The notes under the pieces: generated by a model
Database searches by the model: none
What the model was told of the DNA's origin: nothing
What the model saw: the letters and a program-made list of their open reading frames with translations, nothing else
Shown here: positions 20,141 to 56,453 of the stretch, piece by piece
Layout of the letters: every line of letters starts with the position of its first letter
How positions within the stretch are numbered: position 1 is the stretch's first letter
Position numbers and translations under genes: made by a program
IMG/VR virus record: IMGVR_UViG_3300028833_000145
DNA length: 64,000 nt
From: an uncultured virus (IMG/VR IMGVR_UViG_3300028833_000145)
Taxonomy: Duplodnaviria > Heunggongvirae > Uroviricota > Caudoviricetes
Strand: one strand, 5' to 3'

Positions 20141-20216
20141 TCTGCTAGTCGCCTTGATATTGTAAATTCATTTGATATTTACCAACTAGCAAACATTCTA
20201 GATTTGAAACTTCAAC

Positions 20217-21379: not shown

Positions 21380-21406
21380 GACCGTAAAAATTCATATGTG
21401 CCTTAG

Positions 21407-22471: not shown

Positions 22472-23280
22472 TTGGCATAGCCAAATGCTTCATCTTCAGC
22501 TAATGTTGCTTCTTTCATCTCTCTAGTTGGTGGTTCAAGAGCAACTTCCATTGAGTCATAATTAGCTAAAGTCTTAGGTTTTTCAGTAATTTGCTTGCCA
22601 AACCATGCAATTGGATCAATAGCCCGATGCCAAATCTGAACAGATGAACCTGGAATATAATTGCCTTCGGTGTACCAACAAGATTTAGAAGGTTTTGCAA
22701 CTACAACAAACTCACCATCTTTACATTGAGTTCCATCCTGCTTAAATGGATTAACAAATGAGTGGTAGATATCTCTAGAGATGTTTTGATCAGTAATCTT
22801 GTCTTCAATTGCAACTCTCCAAACTCCATCAGTAACTAAACCATCCCAAATCTTTTTACATAAGCTAGTTGCATATTCTTCAGATATCTCTCCATTTTTT
22901 GAAGACCACCATTGCAACTCAACTTGTGCTGGAATCGTTGACTCAGAATTGTTATCTTGACTAAGTTTTGTTGCTTGCTCAGCAATAGCATCTTTAAGAT
23001 TTTCAATGACATCAACTTTAGCTAAAGCTTGCCCGGCTTTTGAAGCAAAAGCATCTTTCTCAACAATCCAAGTCTTCTCAGACTTCTTAAATTTTAACTT
23101 GAGCCATTTCTCTGCAATTTGATAAAGCTCAACAAGTGGAGTCTCTTTATCTTCTCTTTCAAGAGCCGATGGATCTAGTTTGAAGATTGCATTTGTCAAG
23201 TTCTTGTTCAGCTTCTCACCAAACTCTACTTCTTCACCTAGCTCAACTGTAGTTTCCTTGCTGTTGTCTTCTACCATCAT
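22468..23280 (-). CDS. Hypothetical protein
   Basis: 270-aa ORF, no TAG. Confidence 0.7.
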   Translation of the reverse strand: MMVEDNSKETTVELGEEVEFGEKLNKNLTNAIFKLDPSALEREDKETPLVELYQIAEKWLKLKFKKSEKTWIVEKDAFASKAGQALAKVDVIENLKDAIAEQATKLSQDNNSESTIPAQVELQWWSSKNGEISEEYATSLCKKIWDGLVTDGVWRVAIEDKITDQNISRDIYHSFVNPFKQDGTQCKDGEFVVVAKPSKSCWYTEGNYIPGSSVQIWHRAIDPIAWFGKQITEKPKTLANYDSMEVALEPPTREMKEATLAEDEAFGYAK

Positions 23281-23312
23281 GTCAATATATCCTTATTAAT
23301 ATTCTACAACTA

Positions 23313-26300
23313 TCATCTTCCAGCTCTAGCCATTGCCTAGCCAACCCTTGACCTCACATATGCCTGGAGCTTCTCGGCATTCTTTCCGTACTTCCTGCCA
23401 AGATTGCAGAGATAGAAAGCATGGTTTGTCTGGATGAATCCTCTTGGACACCACCTAGGCATCAGGATGCAGTTCAGAGAATCACAGCTCCTGAATGCTT
23501 CTGTCAGGTCGGTAGCTGTCCTAATGTCAAGCTATCCAATCATCTTGAGATGCTAGCAGTATGAGAATCCCATATTCATAGTTGTTGACATAGGAACTAG
23601 CACACTTTTGACATCCTCAAGTCTAGAGCAGCTTCTGAAGATTCTTGAAGTTTTAGTTGCAACCGGTGCTGAGAATGTTCCAATCTTCAGAAGTGAATTG
23701 TTGTTGCTGAACATTGAGTAGCAGTTCAAGCAAGCAGGAAGCTCTAGCTCTTCAATTCTCTGGATTGATGCTGATGAGAACATTGTTGTTCCTTCAATGA
23801 GCTTTGGAAGTTCAACCGACTCTTTTGTGATCACGGATGGACAGCAGTTTGATGAAGAGTTGAACATGTTGTAGCCATTCTCAAGACTTGGAAGCTTGCA
23901 TTTCTCTGGGGCTACAGCAACTCTGCATGAGTTGAACATCGCTGTTGCACTCTTCAAATTCTTGCAACTGTCAAGAACATTAATTGAACCAACTAGAACA
24001 GTGGTGTTGCTGAACATTCTTGCTGCTTCGACAATGTTGTCAGCGTTGATGAATCCCTTAAACTACTTTACTCTTGAATAGTAGAATGCTGCCGCGGCAT
24101 CTGTGACCGCAGAAAGATCCACGACTGGAAACACCAAATGCTCATCGGTGATGTGAGCAAACCAACCCCTGATCTTTCCATCATTTGGTGCTAGCTTCAG
24201 GCCTTGGCACTTAGCTAGAACACTCTTGTTCATCAGGAGAACTCTAGCCGCATCCTCAGAGACAACTGTTATCCAGCCATTCTCATCAGGCTCTAGCTTG
24301 TATCTCTTGAATAGACCATCAGCCATTGCTTCAGAGACCTTTCTCATCTCCCAAGGGAAATCCTCAAGGAATGAGCCATATGCATCTCCAAACACTTGCT
24401 TGACCAGAGTCTTTGGTCTGGAAGATCCATAGAATTCCCTGCTTGTGACATTATCCCAGTTGACATTTGTTGAGAATCCAGCTTCACCAATCATGAGTGT
24501 TCCTGGAGGCAGAGGAGTCTGATTCTCACTTCCGCACTTGATTGCAAACATTCCCTCAAACTGTTTTGCCTTTGGGCAGATCATATCAGGAAGTTGCTAA
24601 ATCTTTGCAAACCTGAACATGTCCCTCAAGTCAATGAGGTCATCAGTTCCTTCAATCTTTCCAAGGTGCAAGATGTTTGTCTCTCTGAACATGCTTTCAG
24701 CGTGCTTGACTCCAGTGAGATCAAGTGCTTTGATGAAGAGAGTCTAGCTAGTTCCATAGAACAAACCACTAGCATCTTCCATCTCAATCTTGATTCCTGG
24801 ATATCTCTTGAAGTCCTTTGCAAGATTCTTTGCCATCTACTGGTTTTTGATGATCAGATATCCTCTATCATCAACCAAGTCAGATCCTTCATCTGGTCTT
24901 CTGTAGAACTCTTCAAGCTCTTCCATTTCTTTTGTGAAGTTTGGAGAGTCAACAACTTTTGGTGAATAGGCAAAGATCTCTTCAGCAGAGTGGCCACTCA
25001 CTGGGCTTCCATCGCTATTTTTGAAGCTAACTCCGTCTAGAACTAAGGAAGGACCAATGCCAGAGCCTTGGATTGCCTTGAAGCGCATATTTGGAAGTGT
25101 CTTCAAGAATGGACACTTCGTGAATGCGCCTTGTGCACTAGTGATCTTGTCGGTATTCTCAATCAAGACCTAGTCAACATGAGAGTTGTAGAATGCTCGG
25201 TTCATTGTTGAGCAATTCTCAAGATTCAGAGTGAATGGAGCTATCTTGATTGCGCTATAGCTCTGGTCATCTCTCTTGTTGATTCTAGCACTATTGAAGA
25301 TATCTGTTATTGTTGTGGCCTTCGAAGTGTCAAGTCCTTCAACCTTGTTGACCTTGGCATTGCTGAACATGCTAGTCATGATTGCTGGATGACAGTTTCT
25401 GAACTTTAGCTCATTAGCCTTTGCATTCTTGAACATTCCAGTTGCATCATTGACTGCTTCCATATCGATAATTGGCATGTTTCCAAGATCTTGGCTATCA
25501 AACCACTGCACCGTATCTGCCGACATTATCTTGAGACCTGCAAACTTGCTGAAGATCTTCTAGAACTTCTTGATATCATCTGGAGTATTGATGATGAGAA
25601 ATCCATCATGAGCAACCTGAGCTTGGCTCAGGAGCTTTCTGTATTCTTCAGCATAGTATACCTGCTCGCCCTGAATAATCATCTTTCCAAGAGTACTGCC
25701 CGGCTCAGACTATATCAACCAATCAAGAAATCTTTCGCCGCCGCCATTACCATCATCAGTTGAGTCTGCTTCATTCAAGAAGTCAATTCTTCCATTCTTT
25801 CTAAGATACTGATAGAGCTTTCCAGTGCCGAGATTCATGCAGACGATGAGTGGATATCTTCCATGATCACTGTAGGAATTCCAGTGGCCATTGCTCTTTC
25901 TGCGATAATCCCAATATCCATTGCTTTGTTGATATGCATCAGCTGTGCACCACCCAGTCTCAGTCCACTGGTTGTCAAAGCCAATGCCATCCTTGAGATA
26001 CTCAGCATTCCTGCCGTCGCGGCGATCCTTCTGGTCTTGGGTCATTCCAGGCTCATCATATCTGTAGAGAGTCATGTCAATCTCGGATGTTCCAGGAACA
26101 ACCTTTGGTTTAGCTCTTCCAAAAACTGCATCTTGCTCAAATGTTGTTGTGACAGCAATGATCCACTTGCCATCAGTGTAGGTCAATGCTCCAAATCTCT
26201 TTGCTGCCTCGAACAAGTCAAGACGCCTAGCAGCGCATGGGTGCAGATTTCCTTTCTCAAGCTTCTCTTGTGGAAGAGAGTCAACTGAGTTTGTCTTTGC

Positions 26301-27110
26301 CTCAGCTTCATCAACAATCTTCTTGAGCTCAGCTACGGTTGGAATTGTGTCAAGATTGACTCCCTTCAACTGCTTCTTGAGATCACCATTGAACCACTTC
26401 AAGAGAAGAGCTACCTTTGCAGCTTTCATCTCATTGACAACGTCTTTGAATGACTTCTTCTCTTTTGAGAGCATCCTGTATGAAGTATTCAGAAGCCAAC
26501 GGGTTGATCTTGAGATATCTCCATCAACAGTCAGATTCTGCAAGAATCCTTCCTCAAGGTTGAGAGAGGCTAGATCAAGATATGCAAGCTCATTGCCGTC
26601 AACAGTTTCGAGCGTCTTGACATTCTTCTCAGTCTCAATCTCCTTGAAACTGAGCTTGCCAACAATGATGGCATAGAGCTGAGCTAGCATCAAGATTGGT
26701 CCGGAGAGAAGAATTCCATAGTGCTCAACTTGCTCGGTCTTGCTCTTCTTCTAGACCTTGGTGAACTTCTCAATCTTGATCTTTGAGCTCTTCAAGAAGT
26801 TCTTCAATGCTTCATCATTGCCATTGAACTAGCTCTTGATTGCCTGAATCACTCCACCCTCAGCATCATCTGCATCTTTCTATGTGTCTCCAAGCTTGAT
26901 GAATAGCTTTCCATTCCAAGACTATGGGTTGTAGTCTGGAGAAAGTCTAGAAATCTCAAGCATCTAAAATAAATCACTCTTTGGCCACAACTGTCTGATT
27001 TTTGCTACAATATCTTCTAGCAAAAGAGAATCAGCTTGCTCACTCTTAGCTTCTAAACTCTCTTTGAGATACTCTCTAAAGCTCTTAACTTTGATTCTCT
27101 CTTCTGACAT
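23313..27110 (-). CDS. Large protein (about 1265 aa, TAG=Gln) with C-terminal BspA/DUF285-like leucine-rich repeats
   Basis: Five track ORFs share one frame to TGA 23313. Recurrent A..MF..C/S..L repeats. Alternative start at 27128. Confidence 0.7.
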
Positions 27111-27130
27111 AATTGAATCATCCTTCATAA

Positions 27131-28744
27131 TCAAACCAAATCTCCATCAAATTTGACAACAAGCTATACATCATCATGTGAGGCTTTGACAGCATCATAC
27201 ACATCTTTGTACATTCCATTCCATATTCCATATTGCTCTAAGAATTGAACTGCCTCATCTCCAACAAACTTTGTTGTCTTGTCAACCCCAGGAAAGTTTA
27301 CCAGCATTTTGTAGCCGGAATCAGCACCAAAGATCTTTTTCATTCCATTCTTAGTTGATGGAACTCCAAATCCTGTCTACACAGAATTAAGCTCTTTCTA
27401 GACAAGCAACTAGCTTAATCTTTGCTGCAATGCATCTTCTGCAGCAGCCGCTCCACGTGGAGCTCTATGTGCTGGTGCAGCAGCTGGTCTAGCTGCCTAT
27501 GCTTGTCCTCCTTGCTGTTGATTTGCATCTGGTGTAGCATTTGGCTATCCTTGAGCAACTAATCCAATAGTGAATGGTGGATCTTGCTGGATGTTGTACT
27601 TAGAGTTTCTTCTGAAGAAATGATCTCGGTCAAACAAGACCTATATTCCTCTAGGAGAAGTCTTGTACCAAGTCAAATAAAGCTGAACAAGTCTCTTGTA
27701 CCAACTTGAGCATGGTTGTCTCAACATCCACATTGCATAGTCAATTCCAACATCCTAGAACTAGACAATAGCTGGATGTCCATTGAAAGCAAGTTGCATG
27801 ACTACATCAATTCTAGTTCCATTTCCAACTCTCTTGAACTAGATGAATCCTAGACGCTTGACAAATGAGTCAACCGAGTCATCCCAGTTGATCTGCTTGT
27901 AAGTGCATTTACTAACTTCATCCGCTTTAAAGAAAGTCATCTCAGTTGCATTTGTTTGTGCAACCTTAGAAGTAAAATCTGTGTAATTCCACTTTCCAAC
28001 AATGATTGGAAGCATTCTTCTGACTTGAGCCTAATTATTTGTTGCAATGTCTTCACCATTCTTGAACTTGATTCCATGAATAGTGTTGTAGCTATTCTTG
28101 TCTTCTTCGGCATCTTCCTCCCCATTATCTTCAACATCATCTTGTTGGTGGGCTGGCTGCTGCTGTTGAGCTGCCAGAGGAGCTTCTTCTTGTTGCTGTG
28201 GAGGAAATTCACCACCAGCCATCACAAACTACTCAAGATCTGCTGCACTAGTCTTCACACCAATCCAAAGGGTTGGATGCTGCTCTTGATCATTCCATCC
28301 AAGCAAAATCTCTCGATGGGAAGAATGACCTTCAATTGAGAAGTTTCCAATCTTCACCATTATCTGCTCAAGATTGCCACCAGCTTCTTGCATTGCAGTA
28401 ATGTCATTTTTCAAGTCAGTGACTAATGTAGCTCTGTTAGGATCTGCATCCTAAGCATGAATTTCAGCTTCTGTACTTCCTGGTTGCCAGCCAAACTCAT
28501 TTCTGCAGCTCTTTATCTGTCTTGAAGCAACTCTAACAAGCTTTACTTCTGACCGATCATCAAAACATTGATCTTCAAGTGCTGCCTTGAGAACACTTAG
28601 CTTCAAATCGAGACCAAGATGTAAAGCATCATGTGGTGGTGTTTGATAAGCTTCAACTATCTAAGTTTTTCTTATGTTCTTCTTTGCTCGACCTTCAAGC
28701 AAATACTCAATGAAACTCATTCTCTTGTTGTCTACATTACTCAT
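27131..28744 (-). CDS. Hypothetical protein (537 aa, TAG=Gln), possible head internal protein
   Basis: ATG 28744 to TGA 27131 with only TAG interruptions, several within Q-rich linkers. Confidence 0.7.
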
Positions 28745-28833
28745 CTTGCTAGTCTCAAATCATTTTAAATACTTACCTAAGTAAAGATGGTAGTAAGTAA
28801 TACTATAGAATTTACAACATTGGAAGAAAGAAA

Positions 28834-29403
28834 ATGGAAAACCAAATAATTCAACAACTAGGCCAAACACTTCAAGGACTTCTTCCTGAAGTCTAGCAAC
28901 AAGTGAAATCTCTAAAAGATTTTGCAATATTCTCAGGAGCAGCTCTCAAGATGAAAGCACCGGAAGGGCTTAAAGATCTTGTAGATGCTAAGTCTTGGTA
29001 TATCACTATGAAGTTTGATGGAACTGCAACAAGAGAAGATGCAAAGAAAGTGTTTGAATACACAATGGTTGAAAAACTTGGCATTCCAAGAACAGAGCAG
29101 AATCTTGATGATGAGATTCTTCCAAAGATTGACTACCCACCAGCTCCATCTGATGCTCCACAACTTCCAGCTCCATCACCATCTTCAAACTAGGATGTCA
29201 TTGACATTGATGATGAAGGAAATGTAAAGCAAGAAGTTGCAAGAAAAGAGCCACTTGCTGTTGTTCCAGTGTCAAAATACTATGCCGTCTAGCTCAAGAT
29301 ATTTGGAGCCCCAAGAATGGCTGGCCAGCTTAAAGGAGCAAGAAGTACTGGAAGACTTGGTGGAAGAAGAAATTGGAGCGGAAGACAGCTTGGAATGAGA
29401 TAA
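28834..29403 (+). CDS. Hypothetical protein (189 aa, TAG=Gln)
   Basis: ATG 28834 after GGAAG, to TAA 29403. Confidence 0.65.
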
Positions 29404-29428
29404 GGTCTTATCTAAATCAAATAACTTT

Positions 29429-29456
29429 AAAAGCTAGTGGTATCCACTAGCTTTTT
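29429..29456. terminator. Bidirectional intrinsic terminator
   Basis: AAAAGCTAGTGG-TAT-CCACTAGCTTTTT between convergent genes. Confidence 0.8.
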
Positions 29457-29467
29457 GAGTCTAGACA

Positions 29468-30175
29468 TCAATTGAAGCAACCTTTGAACACCGCTGACTT
29501 GATGAAGCATCTTTTTTGGACATTGTCATCACCAACAACAACATTTCCGGTCAAAAGACTCCACTTGATCTAGACAAATCCTAGTTTTCCCCAGGCCGGT
29601 CCAAGTGAGTTAAACACAAGAAGATTGTCAGCATCATATCCAAATGCTACCCAAGCTTTTGTATAATCTTTTCTCAGTGCTTTCAGTGAATTTCCAAGAC
29701 TACTTATAGTGAATCCACCCGGATTTGTTGTAAAAGCTTGTGGAAGATAAGTCTCAACAATTGCACATTTGTATCTATGAATCTGCCATTTTAGCATCTT
29801 AGCTGATGTTGCCCACTCAATCGTGCCCTTGATGTATTTGTGATCACCAGCAAGAGCATTCAAGTAGTTTTCAAGCGTGACATATCCTTCATCTGAAGCA
29901 ACAAAATCTTCTATTCTCCCAGCTTCTTCCCATTGTTTGTCTTTTTGCTTAGCAATTTCTATGTATGAATTGATGGCAGATTCTTTCATCTTCTATGGCT
30001 GACCTGCTCTAAAATGTATAGACTCTAAGAAAGAAGCAACCATAGTTGGCCCGGAAGTTGGTCCAGACACACTTTTTACCGGACATGAGAAATCAAACCA
30101 ATTGAATGCTGTTGGATTAGATGCTCCATCTGGAAATGAAGTAGCTGATGATTGCAATGGTGCATATAAGAACAT
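29468..30175 (-). CDS. Papain (C1)-fold protein apparently lacking catalytic Cys/His (235 aa, TAG=Gln)
   Basis: FNWFD..PVK, KAWVAFGY, VFNSLGPAWGKLGF resemble FDWR..PVK, HAV..VGY, NSWG..WG..G of C1 peptidases. Confidence 0.55.
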
Positions 30176-30192
30176 ATCAAGACATTACTTAC

Positions 30193-30226
30193 AAAAAAAT
30201 GAAGATTTGGAATTCCAAATCTTCAT
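30193..30226 (-). terminator. Terminator-like palindrome
   Basis: Perfect palindrome ATGAAGATTTGGAATTCCAAATCTTCAT with a T-run on the minus strand. Confidence 0.65.
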
Positions 30227-30252
30227 CTTGTTGATGTTCAACATCTTTCAAA

Positions 30253-30774
30253 TCACTTTGTAGTAATTTTCAAAAACACATATGCATCTACTGAAGAATC
30301 AATCTAGACATCTTCATCTAATGTGACTTCTTCTTCGTTGACAATCTCATCAACTTCATCATCAATGGTTATCTCTGGCTTTTCATTTTCTGGCTCAGAA
30401 GAAGTCTCTTCTGCATCTTTGGTTGGCTCTTCTTCAACTGGAGTTTCATCATCAACCTCAGCATCATCTGAAGCTGCGGCAGCAAAAGAAATCTTCTTGA
30501 AATCTCCTTCAACAAGTCTATTAGCATCTTCACCAAAAGCTTTGTTTGTCAGATTGAACAGCTTCTTCATGCCTTCCTTGTTTATGTCTCCTCTGAAGAA
30601 CACAACATAGTTAGCATCAAGCAAGAACTATTCACCAAACTCTTCTTTGATCTTATCTTTGATGCGCTTCGGAACAGCTCCAACTCCAAAGACATCTGTC
30701 TTTGCGGTGAAATGCTGGATTGACATCTGCTTCTTCAACAGATTCTTCAAAAGTGCTTTAATGTCAAGTGTCAT
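30253..30774 (-). CDS. Acidic hypothetical protein (173 aa, TAG=Gln)
   Basis: ATG 30774 with upstream AGGAG, to TGA 30253. Confidence 0.65.
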
Positions 30775-30798
30775 CTTTAGTTTCTCCTAAATGAATTA

Positions 30799-32517
30799 TC
30801 ATGCTTGGGTCGATGGAGTCTCGGCATTAGAATCAGCTGCGGCTGAAGCATTTGCATTGTTTCCATTCTTGTTTATGATTGAGCGCTTGTTTGCAGCTCT
30901 CTTAGCAGAGATGCCTCTCATTATATCAAGAAATCTTCTGAAGTTCCTCTCATTTCCAAGAACTTTAGCTCTAAAGTTAGCAAGACCACCATTAGTGCTT
31001 CCAGTAGCTTCTCTTGTAGCTGAATAGAAGTTTCCAAGAGTGTCCTGACAGAACTTGTTTACAGATTGCTGTCTTTTGTTTGGATCTTCACCAGGATACC
31101 AAAGTCTTGCAATATCTCTGAAAGTTGCTTCTTTCTAGCCAAACAGCCTCTTGATAAACATCACTTCTCTTGCTTCTTGCTCTGGATTGTCTTTGTTGTC
31201 TTCATGAGCAATCTCAAGCATTGTCTTCTGCAGCTCTTTTGCTTTCTTTGGTCCAAGTGAATAGAGCAATCTGCTGAAGTCTTCTAAAGACCAAGTGTCT
31301 TGACCTCTCTTTGGAAATGCAATTGGAGCATTCTCTCTAGCTCTCTTCTCAGCTTTGACTGCTTCTCTTGCAGCTTCAGCTCTTGTGACTCTGTGATGAT
31401 AGTCTGGATTGAATGCAAAATCTGTATGAGTTGCTCCACCAGCTTCTTTGTCTGGTCCATGGTAAGCACGATATATGTTCTTAGAGCGAGCAAATCCATT
31501 TGCTGCATCTATAGGCTCATTGCTTGCATCCCAACGCCTCTGGAACTCTTCGGGATCCATTGCTTTATACTCTTCAATAGAGTTTATTCCCATGCTCTTG
31601 AGGATTGCAAGCCAAATTCTCTCTTGCTTAGCATTAGCCTCATCATTATCAACAGCTTCACCAGCATCAAGAGCCTGGTCAAGATTGTCAAGCTCTTCAT
31701 CTGACATATCTTCAAGATCAGCCTCAAGTAAAGCTTTCCGACGTCTTTCTTTCTCAGCTTTGACCGCTTCTTTTACAATAGACATCTAGCAAACATTGTT
31801 AGCTTTGAGATTTGCAGTTGAAGCTTTGACTCCAACTGGATCAAACACATGTGCAAGTGCTTCACGATAGTCAGCTTCTTGAAGAGTGTCGCCATCTTCA
31901 TACACTAGGCTGTCATAGAATCCTTGTGCTTCACCGGCATCTTCAACATCTTTCCATCTAAACAGACCTAGCCAAAAAGCATATGCTTCTTTGAGATCTT
32001 TTACTGTTCCAGTGATCTTGTAGATTGGATTAGGACCAACTTTTCCGGATGGTCTTGCAAAAACATCTGGAACATCTTTTCTCAATTCTTCCGCAAAAGC
32101 TTCACCAGTTCCATCTTCAGCATCAAAGATGTCTAGCTCTATTGAAGCATAGTCATTGTCATTGTGAAGTGCTTCATTCAAGTCATCTTCAGCTTCCTTC
32201 TCTTGCAACTCTTGTCCATCTTCGGTGAAACCACACTCAGCCAAATCAACATCATCTTTCTTTGCATTATCTTCTTCATCAAGATGTCCATTATGTGGTC
32301 TGCCATCAAGCATATCATCTTCAGCAACATCTTCTTCAGAATCAACAAAGCCGAGTGAAGCCGGATCAATAACTTCATCCTCTTCTCCAAGCTCAACATC
32401 ATTTATTGCGTCTTCAGCTTCTTTTATTGAATCATTGCAAGCTTTCTCATAAGCTTGATCTTCAGCCTCAGCCTCTTGGAGCATCTTTGCCCACTGCTCA
32501 ATATCTTTCTGTGCCAT
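30799..32517 (-). CDS. Acidic hypothetical protein (572 aa, TAG=Gln), possible prohead core/internal protein
   Basis: Joins 31786-32517 and 31135-31785 and extends to TGA 30799. Confidence 0.7.
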
Positions 32518-32670
32518 GTGTTTTCAAGTCTCTTTCTTTGTTTGTTTCACCAGGCTTGTCTTTATAGAGAAGGAAGCCTAAGCTTTTGAAACTATTTACC
32601 AACTAAGATATGCTAAAAGAGCTTGAGAACTAAATCCCAAGCTCTTCCATTTATTGTGTCAAGAAGTTAT

Positions 32671-33753
32671 TCATCTCAAAACATACTGTGCAGAATAGTC
32701 ATCTTCTGGGTCAAGACCAAGAGAGATGTTTCTGTTGATTCCTAGCATGTCAAGCTTCTTCAATGCTTCTTCATCATTGTTCTTGACTGCATCAAAGATT
32801 GAAGCAATTCCAACATAGAGCTCAACTACATCCCCATCATTTGGCATCTTGAAGTGCTTGTGGCGAAGCATTGTTGCTCCTCTCTTGTACTGTCTCTCAG
32901 GATAGAGGAAATCAACTACACCTCTTGTGAACTCAATCGGACCGAATCTCCAGTTGCGATCCATGCTCTTGCAAGCCGGATCAACATCTGCAACACAGTA
33001 CCAGCCGATTGCTGCACCTCTTGGAGCAGATGAGCCATATGAAGAGTACTTTCTACCATAGCCACCAAAGCCACCATAGCGGTCATAGCGTTCATCAATG
33101 TCTTCCTCATCAAGGTCATCAGCATTCTCTTCTGGCTCAGAATCTTCTCCTTCAGAGACATCTTCCTTGCTTTCTGCATCTTCTTCCTTAGAGTCATCTT
33201 CATCAAGAGCTGCATCTTCATTGCCATTAGCTCTGAATGACTCACCTTCATCAAGATCTTCTGAAGAGTCACTAGCTTCTTCATTCTTTGGAGGATTCTT
33301 CTTCAAGAGCTTTGAGAGAACTGGATCACGATGCCAAATTCCAAAGACAACATTTGCAAAGTAGTTGAATTGCTCAGTTGTCTTCAAGAGATTGTCAATT
33401 GCCTTCTTGTCACCACCAAAGATGTTCTTGCTGAACCACTCAGAGTAGCCTTTTGCCATTTGATCTATGACTTCTGCAGGCATTCCAAGCTTCTTGAGCT
33501 CTTTCTTGCAGTTGTCAATGGAGACACCTTTCTTAATTGTTGTCTTGATTGCAACTAGTGGATCTGGTGTCTCTCCATCTTCAAAACGGAACATTCCTCC
33601 AGCTTTGATCTGTGCTCCAATTGCCTTTGCAAACACTTTAGCAGTTTCTTTCAGCTTTGCCTCAGTCTTTGGCTCTAGAGACTCCCTCAAGAGCTCATTA
33701 TGCCAAAAGTTGATTGCATCAACAATCTGGCTCTTTGTGTATCTTGTCTTCAT
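32671..33753 (-). CDS. Hypothetical protein with acidic linker, possible head internal protein
   Basis: Likely start MKTRYTKSQIVDAI; N-terminus shared with 49017-49361. Confidence 0.7.
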   Translation of the reverse strand: MKTRYTKSQIVDAINFWHNELLRESLEPKTEAKLKETAKVFAKAIGAQIKAGGMFRFEDGETPDPLVAIKTTIKKGVSIDNCKKELKKLGMPAEVIDQMAKGYSEWFSKNIFGGDKKAIDNLLKTTEQFNYFANVVFGIWHRDPVLSKLLKKNPPKNEEASDSSEDLDEGESFRANGNEDAALDEDDSKEEDAESKEDVSEGEDSEPEENADDLDEEDIDERYDRYGGFGGYGRKYSSYGSSAPRGAAIGWYCVADVDPACKSMDRNWRFGPIEFTRGVVDFLYPERQYKRGATMLRHKHFKMPNDGDVVELYVGIASIFDAVKNNDEEALKKLDMLGINRNISLGLDPEDDYSAQYVLR

Positions 33754-33838
33754 TTCTGTCCTATCTATAGATTTGTTTCGTACGTACATGTGCATGCGAT
33801 GCACTTTTTACTATTTACCATGGTTGTAAGTATGCTTG

Positions 33839-35905
33839 ATGGCAAAAACTAACGAGAACTTCACATTTGACTCACCAGGAATGCAAGTCTGGTGGCACGG
33901 AACTACAGACTCTGGCTTCAAGCACATATATGCTCCTTCATTTGAGAATCCATTCTTCATCTCAGATGATCCGGTAGAAGCAGAGATGTACATGCATGGA
34001 GGATATGACATGGACTCTAGTGACTCACAGCTAGCACTTGTTCTCATCAATCCAGATGCCTTAGTGACCTTTGACTGGTGTGACCAGCAAGATCTTGATC
34101 AGATATAGAGCATTCCAAAGATCATCAAGAAAGTTCTTGCATTCAAGATGAAGAGCACATTCAGTCTCATCCAAGGAATGACTGAGATGAGCTTATTCTA
34201 TGCTCTTGGTCAAGATGACTTTGAAGACTTCAAGAAGTGGTTCAAACTCTGGCTTGAGAAGATCAACTTTGCTAAAGCAGATGATGTCAAAGATGAAGAT
34301 GCTCAAGAGGTTTGGGACTGGATTGGCTCAGCTAAAAGCTCAAGAGACTTGTTCAAGATAAGAGACCTGACTGAAGATGTTGACTGTGAGACAGCAAATG
34401 GAGTTCTCTATGAGCTCTTTTGGTCATAGCTTGAAGGAACCAAGTTCAACTCATTCCACGAGAAAGAGATGTCAGAGAACATTGCTCTCTGTGATGCAAG
34501 CGCGATCAAAGGAATCTGGAGCAGATCACTTGACATGCAAGAAGCTTCAGACTTGATGAAGAGTTTGAGAAGCATAAACTTAGAGAGCTATGCTGCTCTC
34601 AGAAATGCAAAGACTCCGGAAGAAGCAGAAGCAGCTCTGAAGGTCATCTTGCCTCCAAATCCAGCTAAGCAAAGTTTAGTTGAAGAGAAGATCATAGATG
34701 CATCTGATGACCTCTGGGTCAATGGGACAACACTCCAAAGGTGGAATCCAAAGACAAAGATGTTCAGAGTTTGGAATGGAGGAGAAGCAGTTGAGACTCT
34801 AGCTAGCATCTCTCATCCAATCTTCTTCACGAATGACATCAACTATGCAGTCAGATATGCAGAGCAGCATCTCTCCAAAGACTATGCAAATTCCTAGAAG
34901 AACACAAATAAGTTTGCTATAGCCTACAGAGGAGGAAATGCAGTTATTGTCTTAGCATAGCTTGCAAACGCTGAGTTGTTTGACTTTAGAGATCCAGTAT
35001 GCTTTGAGAAAATTGGATTCCCAGCAAGATTCCAGAAGATCTTCTAGAACTGTGAACCTTACTTCTCATTCAATAGCAATGTTAGACCGAACTCAAAGCT
35101 GAATTTGCGGCCTCAAGAGTTCATCAATGTTTAGAAGTTCTTGAAGTGGACTGAGAGCTAGTAGCGCCAACTCAAAAGAAAGACTCCTTTGAAGAAAGCC
35201 GGGGTATTTGGTCTTGGTTCAGCTGGAGCCGGAAGGGATGCATTCATTGACTTGATTGAGAACCTTGATTTAAAATCCACTTCTGTTGAAGTTGGTGGAG
35301 GTGGAGCTGATCCAAAGTATGATATCAGAGCTAAGTGGTCAGAGTTCTACCAAGCATTCATTGATGCAGTAGAAGAGCAAGGTGGAGTTGAAGAAGTTCC
35401 AGGAAAAGATGGTGGCGTAAGCACTTGGAAGTTGAAGAATGCCAAGCGGGAGAATATCGCAATGCTTCCTGAAGCTCCGACGAATGAGTAGTTTGAGCTG
35501 ATGGAGATCTACCTCTAGCTTCTTGGATGGTATCTTGAGAAGAAGAATGAGATTCCAGCAGAGACAGTCGCTGAAGTCAGAGCTAGCATGAAAGATAAGC
35601 TCCATGCTGACTACACTGATCTTCTCTAGCTATTCTTGCACTGGAAAATTGCTCAGCACTACAAAGGATTCTACTGTCCTGAGTACAGAGGTGGTGAGAC
35701 ATCTTCTCCAGATGCAATTGGTATCTTTGACCAAAGTTTGATCTTGAAAGCTGAGACCGCTGAATGTAGTGATGTTAACCAAGCACTCAATGAGATCAAG
35801 TATCCAGAATGGTATAGAAGGCCAAAGCTCGATATCAAGACTCAGAATGAGATGCTGAAAGCTCTCAAGCAGATCCTTGAGGAGAAGAGAGCTCTGCAAG
35901 CTTGA
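33839..35905 (+). CDS. Protein with two tandem ADP-ribosyltransferase-like (ART-PolyVal type) domains (688 aa, TAG=Gln)
   Basis: WWHGT..F..PFFISDDPVEAEMY and WVNGT..F..PIFFTNDINYAVRYA; five track ORFs in one frame to TGA 35905. Confidence 0.6.
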
Positions 35906-35927
35906 GCTTTGATATAATGATGCTATC

Positions 35928-36320
35928 ATGGATTCAAAGTCTACATTGGCCATAGCAGCATTTCTTCCTGCAACAATTGCTCTGTCTTGGAATCTTGGTG
36001 TGTTCTTGTTCAGACTTAAGAGCATCATCAAAGACAACAAAGCTGAGAAGCTTCTGAGAAAGATGACCAACGCTCTTGGCTTGCACCTGAAAAAATCTAG
36101 AGGAGGCTCTTGGTACATTGCTCTCAAAGAAGATGACAGTTTTGTAGAAAGAGCTATAGCAGAGGTTCCATTGACATCTGAGTCTGCTCTTGAACTCAAG
36201 AAGAATCTTGTGAAGGTTGAGAGTCTAGAAGTTGGAGAGAATGATACTATAATCAAGAACCTCTTCTTCCAGAAGTCAGAAGCTGAGATAGAAGTTCTTG
36301 CAGACTTAGCCGCAAGATAA
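35928..36320 (+). CDS. Hypothetical protein, member of the C-terminal SxEEL..DL family, N-terminal hydrophobic helix
   Basis: TTTGATATAAT upstream; ends KSEAEIEVLADL. Confidence 0.65.
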   Translation: MDSKSTLAIAAFLPATIALSWNLGVFLFRLKSIIKDNKAEKLLRKMTNALGLHLKKSRGGSWYIALKEDDSFVERAIAEVPLTSESALELKKNLVKVESLEVGENDTIIKNLFFQKSEAEIEVLADLAAR

Positions 36321-37022
36321 GTCTGGATTCAAGAGGTGTGCTCTCACAAGCAGCTCCTCATAGCTTTTCTTGTAATAAGGATTTTTGATGTTCATGCCAA
36401 TTTTTGCAGCCCACAGATTCTGTTCGGCTTGAAGCTCTTCAAAGATATATCTAGCATCTCCACACATGAGTCCAGGATCTTCATCTTTGCAAGACTGGTT
36501 GACAATATGCCAAGAATCTGGATATCCGATCATTGCTCTCAAGTCCAGACCAATTGCATTCAAAAGGGTCTTTGCAACATTGATGTCTAGATCCTTGCTG
36601 CTTCTCCACTCAAGCACTGGTCTTGCAAGAACATCTCTATCTTTGCCATTGTTGAGCCACTCAGCAACAAGATGCCGATGGCAAAACTTCTCAGGAGTCT
36701 CATAGCAAAGAAGAGTGACATTTCTGCAGACACTCTCATCTTCAAGATGCACAATCTTCCTGACAATGTCTGATTGATCTAGCTCACTCAAGACAGTCTC
36801 TTTGTACTTCTCGGTATACCAAGCTCTAGACTCTTCACTCTCAAGATTGTCTTTGAATGAATCATGCCAGATCTTCCACCACCACTTCTTTGGAGCTAGC
36901 TCTGGTAGCTTGTATCCTCTGAACCACTTTGGAGAGAAGCCAGCAATTGAGACAAATACCTCTTTATGACACTCTTTCTCAATGGCTTTGATGTTTCCGA
37001 AATATGATGTATGGATGCTCAT
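36306..37022 (-). CDS. DUF488-like protein fused to a SxEEL-family C-terminal domain
   Basis: IHTSYF, ELAP, LLCYETPEKFCHRHLVAEWL. Confidence 0.75.
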   Translation of the reverse strand: MSIHTSYFGNIKAIEKECHKEVFVSIAGFSPKWFRGYKLPELAPKKWWWKIWHDSFKDNLESEESRAWYTEKYKETVLSELDQSDIVRKIVHLEDESVCRNVTLLCYETPEKFCHRHLVAEWLNNGKDRDVLARPVLEWRSSKDLDINVAKTLLNAIGLDLRAMIGYPDSWHIVNQSCKDEDPGLMCGDARYIFEELQAEQNLWAAKIGMNIKNPYYKKSYEELLVRAHLLNPDLSCG

Positions 37023-37498
37023 TGATCATCCTCCTCCTCATCACTTTCATCTTCATCATCTTCCCACTCAGAATCATCATCTTCATCCGGAAGGTCATCA
37101 TAGAACTCTGGATTGTCTTCAGTGCCTCCTTCAAACATCTGGTCATCGAATAGCTTCACTCCTTGCTCTAAGCTCTTGAAATCCAGCTGCTGTGATCCTT
37201 CATCAGTTTTCACCTCGGCATCATAGTTATCCGGACCTTCAGCTGCTGCTTCAGCATTGACCTCTTGTGATTCATGGCTTCTAAACTCTGATGGAGCATC
37301 TTTCCCATTTCCAAGCTCTTCTTGGAGCTGCTTTGAAGCACGCAACCACTCAGCATCTCCAAATACATCATAGTTGTCATCATTGTCAACGCCAGCTTCT
37401 AAGTTTCTTTCATCTGGAACATCAATATCTTTTATGTCATTGAGGTCAACATTGTCAGATGTGCTGACCTTGCTAAAGTCAAAATCCTTTGCCATCAC
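37019..37498 (-). CDS. Highly acidic hypothetical protein
   Basis: D/E-rich 159-aa ORF with 4-bp overlaps at both ends. Confidence 0.65.
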   Translation of the reverse strand: MMAKDFDFSKVSTSDNVDLNDIKDIDVPDERNLEAGVDNDDNYDVFGDAEWLRASKQLQEELGNGKDAPSEFRSHESQEVNAEAAAEGPDNYDAEVKTDEGSQQLDFKSLEQGVKLFDDQMFEGGTEDNPEFYDDLPDEDDDSEWEDDEDESDEEEDDQ

Positions 37499-38280
37499 AC
37501 CAGCTCCTTAACAAGTTTTGCTCTCTCAAGTGGAATCCAACCATATCCAAGCCAATTCCAGCCCCATCTAGTTCCTGGAGCTCTCAGAAGTGTCTTACCT
37601 GGAATTGGAGCTGGAACAAATGCTTCATCATTGATGTCATAGACTCTGAGAATATCACCTTTTTGGTATCTCCAAAGCTGCACATCATCAACTTCTACAG
37701 AATCAAGCAACTCAACTTCATCTCCGACATCCCACTTGAATTGCTTTGTAGCAATTTCTATCTCAGACCATGATGGAGCAAGCAATTTCCAAAAATCTCT
37801 TGCAAGAGTCTTGTCATTGAATCGATAAGCAACATAGCTGCCAGTGCTCCATTGAAATCCAACTTCATCATTCATAAGCATGCAACGGCTGCATCTTCCA
37901 TCTAACTTAGTCTTCAAGTGACTCCATTGAGTTAACTTGCACTTTCTCAAAGCTGTCTTCTCAGAGAAGACTTTGCTTTTCTCATTTATCTCTTCTGCAA
38001 CTTGCCATAGCAGCTCATCCAAGCTAAAATCTCCAGTGAATGAGCTGCTGCTATTGAGAAATGAAAGATCTTGGTTGAAGTCTTTGAAGTCATCCGCTGG
38101 CATTTCATAGCTAGATTTCCACCGCTTCTTTTCTTTATTAGATAGATCTTTTCCAGCAATCAACTCAGGAAGTTGCCCAATGTTTCTTGAGGCAAGCTCA
38201 TCCAAGCTAGAGAACTCTTGCCACTGTGGCTTAACATGATGACCATATATCCAAACTCTATGAACATTTCCATCTATCAT
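37495..38280 (-). CDS. Hypothetical protein
   Basis: 261-aa ORF with 4-bp overlaps. Confidence 0.7.
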   Translation of the reverse strand: MIDGNVHRVWIYGHHVKPQWQEFSSLDELASRNIGQLPELIAGKDLSNKEKKRWKSSYEMPADDFKDFNQDLSFLNSSSSFTGDFSLDELLWQVAEEINEKSKVFSEKTALRKCKLTQWSHLKTKLDGRCSRCMLMNDEVGFQWSTGSYVAYRFNDKTLARDFWKLLAPSWSEIEIATKQFKWDVGDEVELLDSVEVDDVQLWRYQKGDILRVYDINDEAFVPAPIPGKTLLRAPGTRWGWNWLGYGWIPLERAKLVKELV

Positions 38281-38864
38281 CTTAATTCTTCTCCAAGAAT
38301 CAAATTCATCTTGAGTTTGAGGCTTTCAATGCTTTCAAATGCATTGAGAACAATGTCATTTGGCTCTTTGTCAAAGAAAAGCCACTCATACTGCCTAAAT
38401 ACATCTTCAAGCAAAATAGTGAATCCTCTAGAGCTAGCTTTGACCATCAACTCCATAGTTATTCCATGAAGCAAAAGCTTCAAGTCTTTGCAAGTCTCAT
38501 CATTCTGAAAATATTTAGCATGTGTGGTGTCAATAATGTCAGTTTCAAGGAAGAATTCTTCAAACCCGTGTCTTTTGAACTCATCTTTAAGCAATTGAGC
38601 CGGGGACAATCCACAATATCCATCACCAGCTCTAAAAACTACATTTCTTCTAGTTTGCCATCCATTTGCTCTTCTATTGACAAATTGAACTATTGGAAAT
38701 CGATCTCTACCTTCTAAAGCAGAGATAAAAAGATCTTTAGGCTCTAGACGTATTCCATCTAAGCCTCGTGTCTTGAGAACTTGCTCAAGAAGCTTTGCCA
38801 GATGACTTATCTTCTTTGCTTCTCTTTTAAGTGTTTTTGGCTCAACAAACATCAACTTCATCAA
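38277..38864 (-). CDS. Hypothetical protein, SxEEL family
   Basis: Ends ESIESLKLKMNL. Confidence 0.65.
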   Translation of the reverse strand: MMKLMFVEPKTLKREAKKISHLAKLLEQVLKTRGLDGIRLEPKDLFISALEGRDRFPIVQFVNRRANGWQTRRNVVFRAGDGYCGLSPAQLLKDEFKRHGFEEFFLETDIIDTTHAKYFQNDETCKDLKLLLHGITMELMVKASSRGFTILLEDVFRQYEWLFFDKEPNDIVLNAFESIESLKLKMNLILGEELR

Positions 38865-38951
38865 TCTTTCAAGTAAAATTTTAAAGTTCTAGATTTTCCT
38901 AATAAGGTAAGTAAACTAAAGCTTACAAATTATTATAGAAAGAAACAGACT

Positions 38952-41024
38952 ATGGCATAGGCAGAAGGAAAGTCAATTTCAGAGCTAGGTTCAGCAATTG
39001 CATATATGGATCCAAATGACTTAGCATTGATTTCACAAAAGCAAAGCAATGGTTCATATACATCAAAAGCTGTTTCAAAAGCAGCTTTTGAAAAACTGAC
39101 AATCTCTGGTGAACGTGATGCTTCAACTAGAACTGCATCTAGCTATAAAGTGCTGCAGTTTGTTGATAGTTCGTCTGCACATCTTGGATCTGGATATCTA
39201 TAGCATGCTTTTTGGGAAGGCGGAGCAAATGCAACATAGATTATAGCATAGAAGAAATGTGGCACTGAGACAAAGAGTGGAATTCTTGCTGTAGTTGTAA
39301 ATCCAAATGGCTCTAGATATGGCTACTGCACAGCCGAAGGATTTGGCATTGGACCTAGTCCAACAAGTGCAAGTGGACCAAATGTCTACATCCAAGGTTC
39401 TGCTGGATCGATAGAGCTTCGTCCATCATCTGAAGCTGCTCATGGTGGCTACATTGACTTCCACTACCAAGGAAACAGTGGTGACTACACATCACGTCTG
39501 ATTGAAGGACCAAATGACTTCTAGGTGATAGCAGCTAGCAAAAATATTGTTGTCAAAGCAAATGATTCTGGAAAGCAAGTCGTTCTCAATGCTGCAGCAA
39601 ACCAAAGCACACTAGCAAATTCACCAACACAAGGAACTGATGCTAAGAATTCTAAAGCTATAGCTACAGTTGGTTGGGTAGCCTCTAACTTTCTTCCAAC
39701 AAGTGATCTTTTTGATGATCCAACAGAATTAATTGAAGCTCTTGATGGACTTCTCAACAAGCAAGATTTGGTCATCTATGTTGACAGCACAAGCACTCTA
39801 GAAGCTTCTGGAAACTATGTCTTGAAATCTATCAACTCAAAGACTAAAGGTGTCTTCTTGACAAAAGATGCAATAAAGCAAACACCAGTCAAGACAATAT
39901 ATGATGCTATAAAGATCGCAAGAAAGATAAAGTTCTTAGAAGATGCAAACTGCTACATAAGACTTTTGACCGACCAAGAATTCAAGAAACAAGCTGACAA
40001 CTCAAACTTAGTAGAGTCATTTGACTTGTCACACCCAGACTTAGTCCAAAACAAGTGCTTTTATGTTTGTGGCTGGACTGGTGGATCTAACTACAATGCA
40101 ACTAAGCATGAATATACAGGAACTAGTGGAGATGCTGCAGTCAGAAAAATATCGGTTGACTTGACTACACCAGCAAGAACACTAGACAAAAGACATTATG
40201 TTTCATTGATCGTAACTAGAAGCAAGACTATATTTAGACATATTGCATTCTATGGAAAGCTTGGAATGACACATTTCAATGATGGAAGTAGATTCTACTT
40301 GAAAAGCGACTACAAATATGATTCATATTTTGTTAAAAACAATGGAAGTGATGAAGTCAAATTTGAAAAATGCATGATTAGAGGGTGTGATGTTGGATAT
40401 TGTGGTCCACATGGATGTTTCTACAACACTACATTTTCATTTGTCAACACTTGCATTCACAACCTTGCTGGTTAGAGAACAGATATCTATCTAGGATTGA
40501 ATGTGAACAATTGCTATAGATTCATCTATGCTGACTCGGCAGCAACATTCCTTGTTTCTGTTGGATCAACACCATGCAAGTGGAAAATCTACACAGCAGA
40601 ATCTCCAATAATTGTTGGAAATGGTGGAACTGGACGAATCAATCTGTATACTAGTGTAAATGATATTGCTCTCATTGAAGATGCTGCTGGAACAATCAAG
40701 ATTGATGGTGCGTCATATAGCAGAGCTCCATCCGCTGGAACAGCAACAAAAGTCAACACTAACATCGCAGCATTTGAGGTTGGAAGCATAGCACCAATTT
40801 CGACTACAGCGGTAGTTAAAGTAAAGAAAACAGCGAATGATTCATCTACTGACTAGGCAAAAGCATTCATGAAATGGTTCATCAACCAAGAAACTTAGGG
40901 ATATAGTGACAATGGATTCATCAAATTTGACTATGGTGCTAGAAATTGGCTCAGTATGTACACAAAAACAACAGCTCCATGGGCAGACAATGAGATTCCA
41001 GATGGTGGAACTATCTCATTCTGA
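38952..41024 (+). CDS. Tail fibre/tailspike-like protein (690 aa, TAG=Gln)
   Basis: MA*AEGKSISEL start; GGYIDFH..DYTSRLIE fibre motif; beta-helix-like C-terminal half; ends TGA 41024. Confidence 0.7.
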
Positions 41025-41031
41025 GTTTATT

Positions 41032-41619
41032 TCACAGATTAAATCGATGTCTTAGCACATCATGCCAAATTTTGATATTTTTAGTTGTGTGCCCGGCTAG
41101 CCAAGTAGCAGCTTTTGCCATAGTCTCTTCAGATCCACAAAACCTCCAAAGTGTTGAGTCTTCATTTGGATTTGAGAACTCATGATATAGAGCAAGTCTC
41201 TGGTCAAGAGGAACTAGATCATCAAGACATCCACTTTCAACTGCAATACACAAAGATCTAGCAATGACCTGAGATGTCTTCACAAGATTCCAAGAGAGGC
41301 TTGGATATCCTCGATCAACTATCATCTGACCCTGAGGAATCCAATCTCTGAGATGTGAAAGAACTAGGTCTACATCCTTCTCACCAGGTTCATAGTGCTT
41401 GCCATAGTCTCGTTGAGAGACAAAGTGCAAAGCTTTAAGAACCTCAGGAATCTTCTTGTCTAGACCTAAAAGAACTAGAGTGCTAGCAAAGATCTCTGGG
41501 CTCTCAACACAAACTAGCTTGCTTCCCTCAACAATCTTCTCAGACTCTTTGAAGTGAGGAGCAAGACTTGAAGCAAGACTTTTGAAGATTGATGACAACT
41601 CTGTTTCTAGATCTGCCAT
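41032..41619 (-). CDS. Hypothetical protein
   Basis: 195-aa ORF. Confidence 0.65.
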   Translation of the reverse strand: MADLETELSSIFKSLASSLAPHFKESEKIVEGSKLVCVESPEIFASTLVLLGLDKKIPEVLKALHFVSQRDYGKHYEPGEKDVDLVLSHLRDWIPQGQMIVDRGYPSLSWNLVKTSQVIARSLCIAVESGCLDDLVPLDQRLALYHEFSNPNEDSTLWRFCGSEETMAKAATWLAGHTTKNIKIWHDVLRHRFNL

Positions 41620-41665
41620 AGTACTTTCTTTTTAGATATTATGGATGTAGAGACCTAAGACAATG

Positions 41666-42592
41666 TCACTTATGTTGGTGATAGTACTTTGAGCTAATTG
41701 CATCAGAGAATCCAACATCAACCATGACTGGTGTAAGTTGCCCTCTCCTGATTGCAATTCCCCAGTTCTCAGCTCTCTAGACATCTCCAGGAAGAAGCTC
41801 ATCTACTCCATGCTTCTTCCAGAACTAGACAATCTGCATGAATGATCTCTAGCCTGGGGTCATCTTGTCTTCTCTAGTCTTCAAAAGACTTTCAAGAGCA
41901 TTTGCACTTGCTTCAGCTACATCAGCCCACGACAGCATGCTAGTGAAGCCATGCTCTCCATCATGTCTCCAATGCTTAGTTTTAGTCCTCAAGTCATCTA
42001 TAGCTTCTTCAAAGTCTAGCTTCTTTGTCTAGCACAGGGTCTTCATTGCTCCTCTGAGAACATCTTCATTTGCAGTGAACCCTAGAAGCTCAGCTAGCTT
42101 GTTGTCATCTTCTATCTTTGCACAGCACTCAGTCAAGAGAAGTCCATAGTCTTTTGTGGCACCATAGCTCTAGATGAAGCACTCAACATTTGGCTTCCAC
42201 CATCTCTTCTTTGTGTGCTTCAGCTCTTGCTAGCTCTATGCCGCTCCAGCTTCAGACTTAGCTACTTTCAAGCACATTCCACCAAGACAAGCATATGCTG
42301 TTCTTGAAGACCCAGACCCAACAAGCTTTATTGGTGGACATTTCTTCTTGAGATAGTGGTCACGAAGCTAGTCGTGCACCATTCCTCTCCAAGCTTTCTT
42401 GGTAGTTCCAGTTGCTTGAAGAAGCTCAGTAGCATGCTATTTCATTCCAATGTAAGTCTTGCAGATGTCTTTGAAGCTGAAGTCCTAGCCTAGCTGAACA
42501 TTTTCAATGTTGTTGAAGAAGAAGAATGACTCTGACATCTACTAGCCGTCCGGCAAAAGCTGCTTCAAGTCTTCTAAAGTCACAATCTGCAT
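41666..42592 (-). CDS. Ser/Thr protein kinase-like protein (308 aa, TAG=Gln); absent from ORF track
   Basis: LVGSGSSRTAY (Gly loop), CLKVAK, A*S*QE (helix C Glu), GDV*RAENWG (catalytic loop), VMVDVG. Confidence 0.75.
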
Positions 42593-56361: not shown

Positions 56362-56453
56362 TGGTTGGGGAGCTGGGATTCGAACCCAGACCGACGGCTT
56401 CAGAGGCCAAAGGGTTTTAGAGACCCTCGTGCTAACCACTACACTACTCCCCA
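56362..56453 (-). tRNA. Amber suppressor tRNA (anticodon CUA) with Gln-type acceptor stem and an extra anticodon-like arm carrying CUG
   Basis: TGGGGAG TA GTGT-AGTGGTTA-GCAC G AGGGT-CTCTAAA-ACCCT TTGGC-CTCTGAA-GCCGT CGGT CTGGG-TTCGAAT-CCCAG CTCCCCA A CCA. Confidence 0.92.

Follow-up and report, generated by a model that had tools for sequence, protein, structure and literature searches.

A tRNA gene of a ruminant-gut phage carries two anticodon arms in tandem, the first with the amber anticodon CUA and the second with the glutamine anticodon CUG, and comparison with related genes suggests that the second arm probably acts as a pseudo-anticodon, which would keep the glutamine identity of the molecule while the CUA arm decodes UAG. 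The gene was found in a stretch of 64,000 nucleotides from an uncultured member of the Caudoviricetes (IMG/VR IMGVR_UViG_3300028833_000145), analysed at its full length and called the window here; 0.97 of the words sampled from it occur in two runs of one sheep-gut sample, a possible source of the DNA. Stop-reassigning phages need host synthetases to charge their suppressor tRNAs. GlnRS and TrpRS recognise their tRNAs mostly through the anticodon, and a tRNA with an altered one should be charged poorly. A spare anticodon arm carried on the tRNA itself would be a simple answer to this problem, and it was found with two amino acids.

Structure and occurrence of the two-arm tRNA

ARAGORN called a single tRNA in the window, 92 nt long and on the minus strand, with the anticodon CTA at position 34; its label, tRNA-Pyl, reflects the CUA anticodon alone. 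The Rfam tRNA model RF00005 scored the gene at 62.4 bits (gathering score 29, E 2.4e-13, model positions 1-71), with 18 extra nt inserted in the variable region. This is a real tRNA. The first-pass annotation, made from the sequence without database searches, had described a 92-nt tRNA with an encoded CCA, and all of its coordinates hold when compared with the sequence, ARAGORN, and Rfam (Table 1). Two 17-nt hairpins follow the D arm, the second starting directly after the first, and their loops, CUCUAAA and CUCUGAA, are indeed one base apart. The stem of the second hairpin (arm 2) reads U.U, U.G, G-C, G-C, C-G, in agreement with the earlier description of four pairs plus a U-U followed by a 4-nt linker and the T arm, and removal of one 17-nt unit does take the gene from 92 to 75 nt. 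The variable region, counted from arm 1 to the T stem, is 21 nt and thus long by the type II criterion of more than 10 nt.

Arm 1 is paired in both the minimum free energy (MFE) and the centroid fold. Arm 2 is open in the centroid and paired otherwise in the MFE fold, and with this alternative pairing and a z-score of -1.43, folding energy gives no evidence for the second arm. A pyrrolysine tRNA has a compact fold with a 3-nt variable loop and a small D loop; the 21-nt variable region and the 8-nt D loop with GG do not fit that identity, and there was no Pyl-related family among the 63 open reading frames (ORFs) scanned. A scan for promoters of the sigma-70 type found none upstream of the tRNA on its own strand. 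A strong sigma-70-like promoter (11/12, with TG) lies at 56501-56529 on the plus strand, directed away from the tRNA and towards ORF 56501-56818.

Table 1. Positions in the window of the tRNA parts and of the TAG-containing features discussed in the text
Feature	Position	Strand	Evidence or remark
Whole tRNA gene, encoded CCA	56362..56453	-	ARAGORN, Rfam RF00005, sequence reading
Acceptor stem 5' strand, U1 to G7	56447..56453	-	7/7 paired with 56366-56372
D arm, positions 10-25: 4-bp stem, 8-nt loop with GG	56429..56444	-	Type-I form, G10 present
Arm 1, decoding anticodon arm: 5-bp stem, loop CUCUAAA	56411..56427	-	CUA at 56418-56420
Arm 2, putative pseudo-anticodon arm: loop CUCUGAA	56394..56410	-	CUG at 56401-56403; sequence reading, covarying stems in relatives
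4-nt linker, arm 2 to T stem	56390..56393	-	As long as the variable loop of an ordinary tRNA
T arm: 5-bp stem, loop UUCGAAU	56373..56389	-	Sequence reading, Rfam
Acceptor 3' strand 56366-56372; discriminator A73 56365; CCA 56362-56364	56362..56372	-	Sequence reading
Late genes needing TAG read-through (tail-fibre-like, endolysin-like, glycosyltransferase, others)	3..42592		117 in-frame TAG, 13 ORFs, 9089 codons
In-frame TAG at conserved Gln of GT2 glycosyltransferase motif	12391..12393	+	X faces Q in 4/4 PDB alignments shown

An assembly chimera is not the explanation, as the tRNA recurs in contigs assembled from independent samples. A bovine-gut DNA contig is identical to the window over 56361-56453, and one assembled from a bovine RNA library differs at 1 position over 56362-56450; both have flanks unlike those in the window. 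In another study, a goat-gut contig spanning 56111-56554 shows 7 differences, and the 5 that were located all fall outside the tRNA. The same tRNA in contigs with different flanks marks the 92-nt gene as a conserved unit in several genomic settings, and the gene is common to different phage genomes.

A megablast of 50000-64000 against the GenBank phage set found no phage close to the window. Related genes are nevertheless present in GenBank: phAss-1 has a long tRNA (record 62445-62532) annotated as tRNA-TERM and the crAss-like phage cr113_1 one annotated as tRNA-Gln, and both have the same second arm. Two-arm genes are mislabelled by tRNA finders and in annotations as Pyl, SeC, TERM, or plain Gln. 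An Rfam search of the whole cr113_1 record did not return its long tRNA; two other tRNA-like matches were returned. That phage also carries a 58-nt tRNA-like element (NC_055896.1 17702-17759; L515 703-760) with acceptor, D, and T arms and without an anticodon arm, which scores 44.5 bits in Rfam and has no ARAGORN call.

The probable reading of TAG as glutamine and the identity of the tRNA body

The left part of the window is where read-through appears to be needed. Under code 11, no ORF there (left 43 kb) exceeds 377 aa; once TAG is translated as glutamine, ORFs of 537-1273 aa emerge. Their PHROGs matches include tail-fibre-like repeats, an endolysin-like C-terminus, and a glycosyltransferase. 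The 117 in-frame TAG codons of the 13 late ORFs compare with 71 CAG and 143 CAA in the same ORFs. The tRNA itself sits on the right side of the window, a region in which many ORFs are free of in-frame TAG. Among the 63 ORFs of at least 100 aa that were scanned (21 with PHROGs and 42 with Pfam), there was no match to synthetase, release factor, amidotransferase, RNA ligase, endonuclease, or tRNA-processing families.

As to the amino acid, the clearest site is the in-frame TAG in the GT2 motif (Table 1): with TAG read as X, it faced Q in each of the PDB alignments shown (5hea, 3bcv, 5tze, and 5tz8). A second GT2-like TAG site had only a non-significant match. In alignments of two pairs of paralogs, TAG faced Q three times, K twice, and V, T, E, G, and A once each at 10 informative places; it stood opposite another TAG once and opposite L, S, or Y never. 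The three TAG sites of a UDP-glucose-dehydrogenase-like ORF faced A/A/C, A/A/L, and S/R/G, none of them Q. Glutamine is the best reading of TAG for this phage, short of proof.

Several features of these late genes deserve a mention in their own right. The tandem paralogous pairs are 3-2237 with 3465-5597 and 2259-3434 with 5625-6929, all on the minus strand; the larger pair is rich in SHAEG-type repeats (phrog_25468), and the arrangement looks like duplicated tail-fibre cassettes. ORF 11638-14646 on the plus strand encodes 1002 aa with 18 in-frame TAG codons and two to three GT2-like glycosyltransferase modules. It lies in a stretch of low GC content (0.28-0.32 at 12-16 kb) and is adjoined by the UDP-glucose-dehydrogenase-like ORF 15356-16129.

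Glutamine identity is known to depend on U35 and G36 of the anticodon and on the acceptor stem, mutations causing losses of up to 1e5-fold, and tryptophan identity likewise includes the anticodon (Giege and Eriani 2023, PMC9976931). Outside the anticodon, the window tRNA agrees with the glutamine set at the weak 1-72 pair (U1-A72), G2-C71, G3-C70, and G10, the three acceptor pairs having been pointed out in the first-pass annotation. It departs from the set at the discriminator, which is A73 and not G73. Within the anticodon, arm 1 has U35 but A36, and U35 together with G36 is present in arm 2 alone. The exact positions used are those of the E. coli GlnRS identity set. Across 47 unique long amber suppressor tRNAs (Sup-CTA), the first nucleotide is U in 26 and A in 16, the 1:72 pair is weak or mismatched in 42, and G2-C71 and G10 are each found in 41. 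As discriminator, 36 have G, and 9, including the window tRNA, have A.

Nine long Sup-CTA tRNAs were found in metagenome-assembled genomes (MAGs), mostly labelled Bacillota or Clostridia, although the binning of phage contigs is uncertain. In three MAGs with such a suppressor, the tRNA-Gln has U1-A72, G2-C71, G3-C70, and G73, and C38 where arm 2 has A38. A GlnRS scored above the curated cut-off in three of five MAGs tested that have such a tRNA, and none was shown in the other two. A search of four Bacteroidota MAGs for the discriminator normal to their tRNA-Gln, with A73 in mind, yielded no tRNA-Gln from 30 loci. One MAG labelled Faecalibacterium (G001, contig C15; L472, L475) has a long Sup-CTA about 3 kb from a cluster of six tRNAs that includes tRNA-Gln(UUG), and cluster and suppressor together are probably a phage or prophage tRNA island.

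Conservation of the second arm and its tryptophan counterpart

To judge conservation, we relied on an unbiased scan of viral contigs that fixed a CUA anticodon arm and a T loop and left the spacer between them free. It gave 82 matches, 47 with a normal spacer (9-12 nt) and 35 with a long one. A hairpin with YUG, that is CUG or UUG, both of them glutamine anticodons, in its 7-nt loop was present in 30 of the 35 long forms, with the loops CUCUGAA, CUUUGAA, CCUUGAA, CCCUGAA, UUCUGCA, UUCUGAG, and CUCUGAC; the remaining five, of three sequence types, have ordinary-looking arms. When only unique long spacers were counted, U-YUG-R occurred in 14 of 20 (shuffle mean 2.7, maximum 9), with three further near variants, and U-CCA-R in none of the 20. 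Further copies came from a second, loop-biased scan, which required YTYTGAA, and from a scan of genome collections. The pooled set thus comes partly from a scan that demands the loop, so loop conservation was judged on the unbiased scan alone.

Covariation was assessed on 30 distinct 19-nt arm segments, anchored on the YUG motif and not on pairing. These represent the 47 unique tRNAs after removal of duplicate arm segments, and 3 of 42 unique long Sup-CTA tRNAs that lack a YUG arm (the L021, L058, and L050 groups) were excluded. Pairs were counted on this segment alignment and not on the full-length one, since MAFFT had set arm 2 out of register in some full-length rows. Paired cells in arm 2 amounted to 77.3% against 54.9% after shuffling, a level reached by 0 of 500 shuffles. 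The covariation score was 0.635 against 0.204 for shuffled segments (0/500), with slid-partner controls at 0.08-0.21. The three loop-proximal pairs form in 30/30 arms (3 double-sided changes), 29/30 (13), and 26/30 (15), and the fourth and fifth are weak (18/30 and 13/30). Full 5-bp stems are found in a subgroup of 97-98-nt tRNAs, where they are wholly different from one another.

The geometry is also regular. In 18 of 23 unique glutamine-type arms, loop 2 stands 9 nt from the T stem, and the corresponding distance from the anticodon loop in ordinary Sup-CTA tRNAs is 9-10 nt. Arm 1 retains the normal junction with the D arm, and the linker between the two arms is variable. A scan for the swapped order, with a YUG-type loop first and CUA at the canonical distance, gave no tandem tRNA in 71 matches, 25 of which were ordinary Sup-CTA tRNAs with a chance TGAA word in the D arm. 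These comparisons argue that the second arm is no accident. The first-pass annotation had proposed to test whether CU-YUG-AA is conserved in the extra arm and whether its stem covaries; the comparison gave the predicted outcome in both respects, with homologous loops keeping YUG and not drifting away from CUG and UUG.

Long and normal forms can occur side by side. A normal-length Sup-CTA directly adjoins a long two-arm one in L001 (214-288 and 292-382), L007, L038, L052, L060, L069, and L072, and phAss-like loci pair the two in the same way. In L073 (94-184 and 189-266), the short Sup-CTA beside the long one has an odd T loop, GUCGGCA. Other viral contigs (L353, L358, L365, L367, L395, L404, L409, L410, and others) have normal-length CUA tRNAs with G1-C72 and A73 and bodies that are not glutamine-like.

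A parallel was found in tRNAs that read UGA. An unbiased scan of viral contigs for UCA arms gave 104 matches, 83 of them long. U-CCA-R, which carries the tryptophan anticodon in loops such as CUCCAAA and GUCCAAA, occurred in 39 of 64 unique long spacers (shuffle mean 2.0), with two further U-CCA-U; U-YUG-R occurred in one of the 64. The CCA arms have 5-bp stems whose pairs, of many types, form in 31, 37, 35, 37, and 34 of 37 arms, and in 30 of the 37 the distance to the T stem is 9 nt. ARAGORN called 51 long UCA tRNAs with a CCA arm (40 unique), all with tryptophan-like A1-U72/G73 bodies. It called 17 long ones without a CCA arm (15 unique), presumably with selenocysteine-like bodies, and 20 of normal length. 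A Fisher test of anticodon against arm motif gave p 4.6e-12, a value overstated by the relatedness of the rows. In two separate systems, then, the extra arm appears to match the reassigned stop codon, displaying a sense anticodon for its new amino acid.

How the second arm may work, and what it resembles

Consequently, the suggestion of the first-pass annotation that the CUG arm may be an identity tag gains comparative support from YUG conservation, stem covariation, the CCA parallel, the glutamine-like body, and TAG at glutamine positions. We consider it fairly probable that arm 2 is a pseudo-anticodon. The window phage would write many of its late-gene glutamines as TAG, with this tRNA as its amber suppressor. 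Arm 1, next to the D arm, would read UAG on the ribosome, and arm 2, copying the anticodon hairpin of tRNA-Gln, would present the U35/G36 signal that is missing from a CUA anticodon. Its reader may be the host GlnRS or, in hosts without GlnRS, a non-discriminating GluRS acting with an amidotransferase; together with the glutamine-type acceptor stem, arm 2 would keep the tRNA charged with glutamine. The enzyme might read arm 2 as a side arm; alternatively, arm 2 might move into the place of arm 1 beneath the D stem for as long as the enzyme stays on the tRNA. Both the reading of arm 2 by a synthetase and the manner of it are our inference. Several points count against a pseudo-anticodon, namely the short stems, A38, A73, two of five MAGs in which no GlnRS was seen, the TAG sites of the UDP-glucose-dehydrogenase-like ORF, and the MFE fold. 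The arm is also not obligatory, as 47 of 82 Sup-CTA matches do without it, and CUA suppressors that accept glutamine without an extra arm are known (PMC9976931). The normal Sup-CTA tRNAs that adjoin long ones in phAss-like loci and in L073 likewise speak against a strict need for it.

GlnRS and TrpRS are class I enzymes, said to bind their tRNAs with the variable region facing away, which makes simple side-arm reading geometrically awkward. Taken with the T-stem spacing of arm 2 and the fixed arm order, this leads us to lean towards an arm swap. We tentatively put forward a two-state adaptor, a possibility held with low confidence, in which both arms would compete to stack at one site below the D stem. 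When arm 2 (CUG) occupies this site, the molecule would resemble tRNA-Gln to GlnRS and be charged; when arm 1 (CUA) does, arm 2 would swing out like the variable arm of a type II tRNA, and the ribosome would read UAG. The CCA arm would do likewise in phages that reassign UGA to tryptophan. The canonical junction between arm 1 and the D arm, the 9-nt spacing of arm 2 (18/23 glutamine and 30/37 tryptophan forms), the variable linker, and the unswapped order all fit such a switch.

Arm 2 may instead bind something other than a synthetase, such as a modification enzyme of tRNA-Gln or tRNA-Trp, a phage protein, or a defence anticodon nuclease for which it would be a decoy. A conserved mimic of an anticodon loop matched to the amino acid would suit any reader of that loop, and the class I geometry that disfavours side-arm reading by a synthetase favours this alternative. 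However, the meaning of the stop codon matches the anticodon of the arm in two separate systems, which points to the step at which the amino acid is fixed, and the 63 window ORFs scanned hold no candidate phage factor; we regard a non-synthetase reader as unlikely. It is improbable that either arm enters the A site, so that one tRNA reads both UAG and CAG as glutamine. Both arms have the dimensions of an anticodon arm, and arm 2 lies at the canonical distance from the T stem, but the order of the arms is fixed (0 YUG-first tandem tRNAs in 71 matches), hosts already have tRNA-Gln(CUG), and many glutamine arms are only 3-4 bp. Moreover, a UCA anticodon can read UGG by wobble, so the CCA arm of the tryptophan form would add nothing as a decoder. 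A precursor that loses one hairpin to become either a 75-nt suppressor or a 75-nt tRNA-Gln has about the same small chance: removal of either 17-nt unit leaves a canonical length, but there are no splicing signals seen and no RNA-ligase or endonuclease gene in the ORFs scanned, and the conserved loop bases of a discarded piece would need another reason.

We find it very hard to see the molecule as an ordinary type II suppressor charged with leucine, serine, or tyrosine through its variable arm. The 21-nt variable region would fit, as would A73, which tRNA-Leu and tRNA-Tyr carry, but the D arm is of type-I form with a 4-bp stem, the acceptor stem is of glutamine type, and in the GT2 and paralog alignments TAG stands opposite Q but at no place opposite L, S, or Y. 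The loop of the extra arm is 7 nt long and its 3' linker 4-5 nt, whereas the tRNA-Leu of L001 has a 4-nt loop. A neutral relic of anticodon-arm duplication, or an artefact of assembly, is as implausible. Loops one base apart are what a recent duplication would leave; the stems, however, show no relation to each other and covary from lineage to lineage around a constant loop, and against an artefact stand the same tRNA in independent samples with other flanks and a design shared by 47 unique tRNAs.

The long variable arms of type II tRNAs (Leu, Ser, Tyr, and Sec) are identity elements for synthetases, and the choice of amino acid may likewise depend on the added arm of the phage tRNA. The type II arms have small loops and short 3' linkers and are read by shape and orientation, whereas the arm described here is a sequence-conserved mimic of a 7-nt anticodon loop, with a 4-5-nt linker, on a type-I body. 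Within the collection analysed, the extra arm mimics the anticodon arm of the amino acid to be loaded, with YUG in the glutamine forms and CCA in the tryptophan forms. An engineered pseudo-anticodon variable arm for HisRS offers the closest likeness in design (PMC7590224), as it too is an anticodon-arm-shaped arm on an amber suppressor that recruits a synthetase. That system is man-made, concerns histidine, and needed a HisRS fused to a second anticodon-binding domain; the phage design is natural and presumably served by an unmodified host enzyme. Hairpins that copy a cognate anticodon loop and are bound by the matching synthetase are known from the thrS operator and the tRNA-like structure of TYMV (PMC9976931). 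Those mimics sit in mRNAs or viral genomes, where they regulate expression or tag RNA, and the phage mimic sits inside a decoding tRNA beside the real anticodon.

The tRNA otherwise resembles the Sup-CTA tRNAs of phAss-1 (PMC10607447), crAss-like phages, and Lak phages, which reassign TAG to glutamine (code 15), have the CUA anticodon, and serve in-frame TAG in late genes. Phage Sup-CTA tRNAs are thought to be charged by host enzymes (PMC10607447; 10.1101/2021.08.26.457843), and the available text of these accounts gives the anticodon and isotype call, with no mention of a second arm; how host synthetases charge such tRNAs is left open in the main survey of recoded phages (Borges et al., 10.1101/2021.08.26.457843). 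The window tRNA is also like the CUA suppressors accepted by GlnRS (PMC9976931), in which CUA is tolerated and glutamine is favoured by the acceptor stem and by weak 1-72 pairing. Those have a normal length of 75-76 nt and have lost the G36 contact, and the window tRNA keeps a spare loop with G36. A search of the main text of openly accessible articles found no account of any natural tRNA that bears two anticodon arms, nor is one described in the available portions of PMC7590224, PMC10607447, PMC12386605, PMC9976931, PMC13715818, 10.1101/2021.08.26.457843, and 10.64898/2026.08.21.746148. The statement in the first-pass annotation that no tRNA of this architecture had been described thus stands for the literature searched, but the genes themselves were already in GenBank under the tRNA-TERM and tRNA-Gln labels given above.

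If confirmed, this would be the first natural tRNA with its identity and decoding signals in two separate anticodon loops. It would also offer a blueprint for efficient suppressor tRNAs of anticodon-dependent synthetases, for use in code expansion and nonsense suppression. Should the two-state reading hold, these tRNAs would embody a general and natural uncoupling of the amino acid carried from the codon read. For the phages themselves, a spare anticodon arm would, if confirmed, represent one route by which genetic codes can change.
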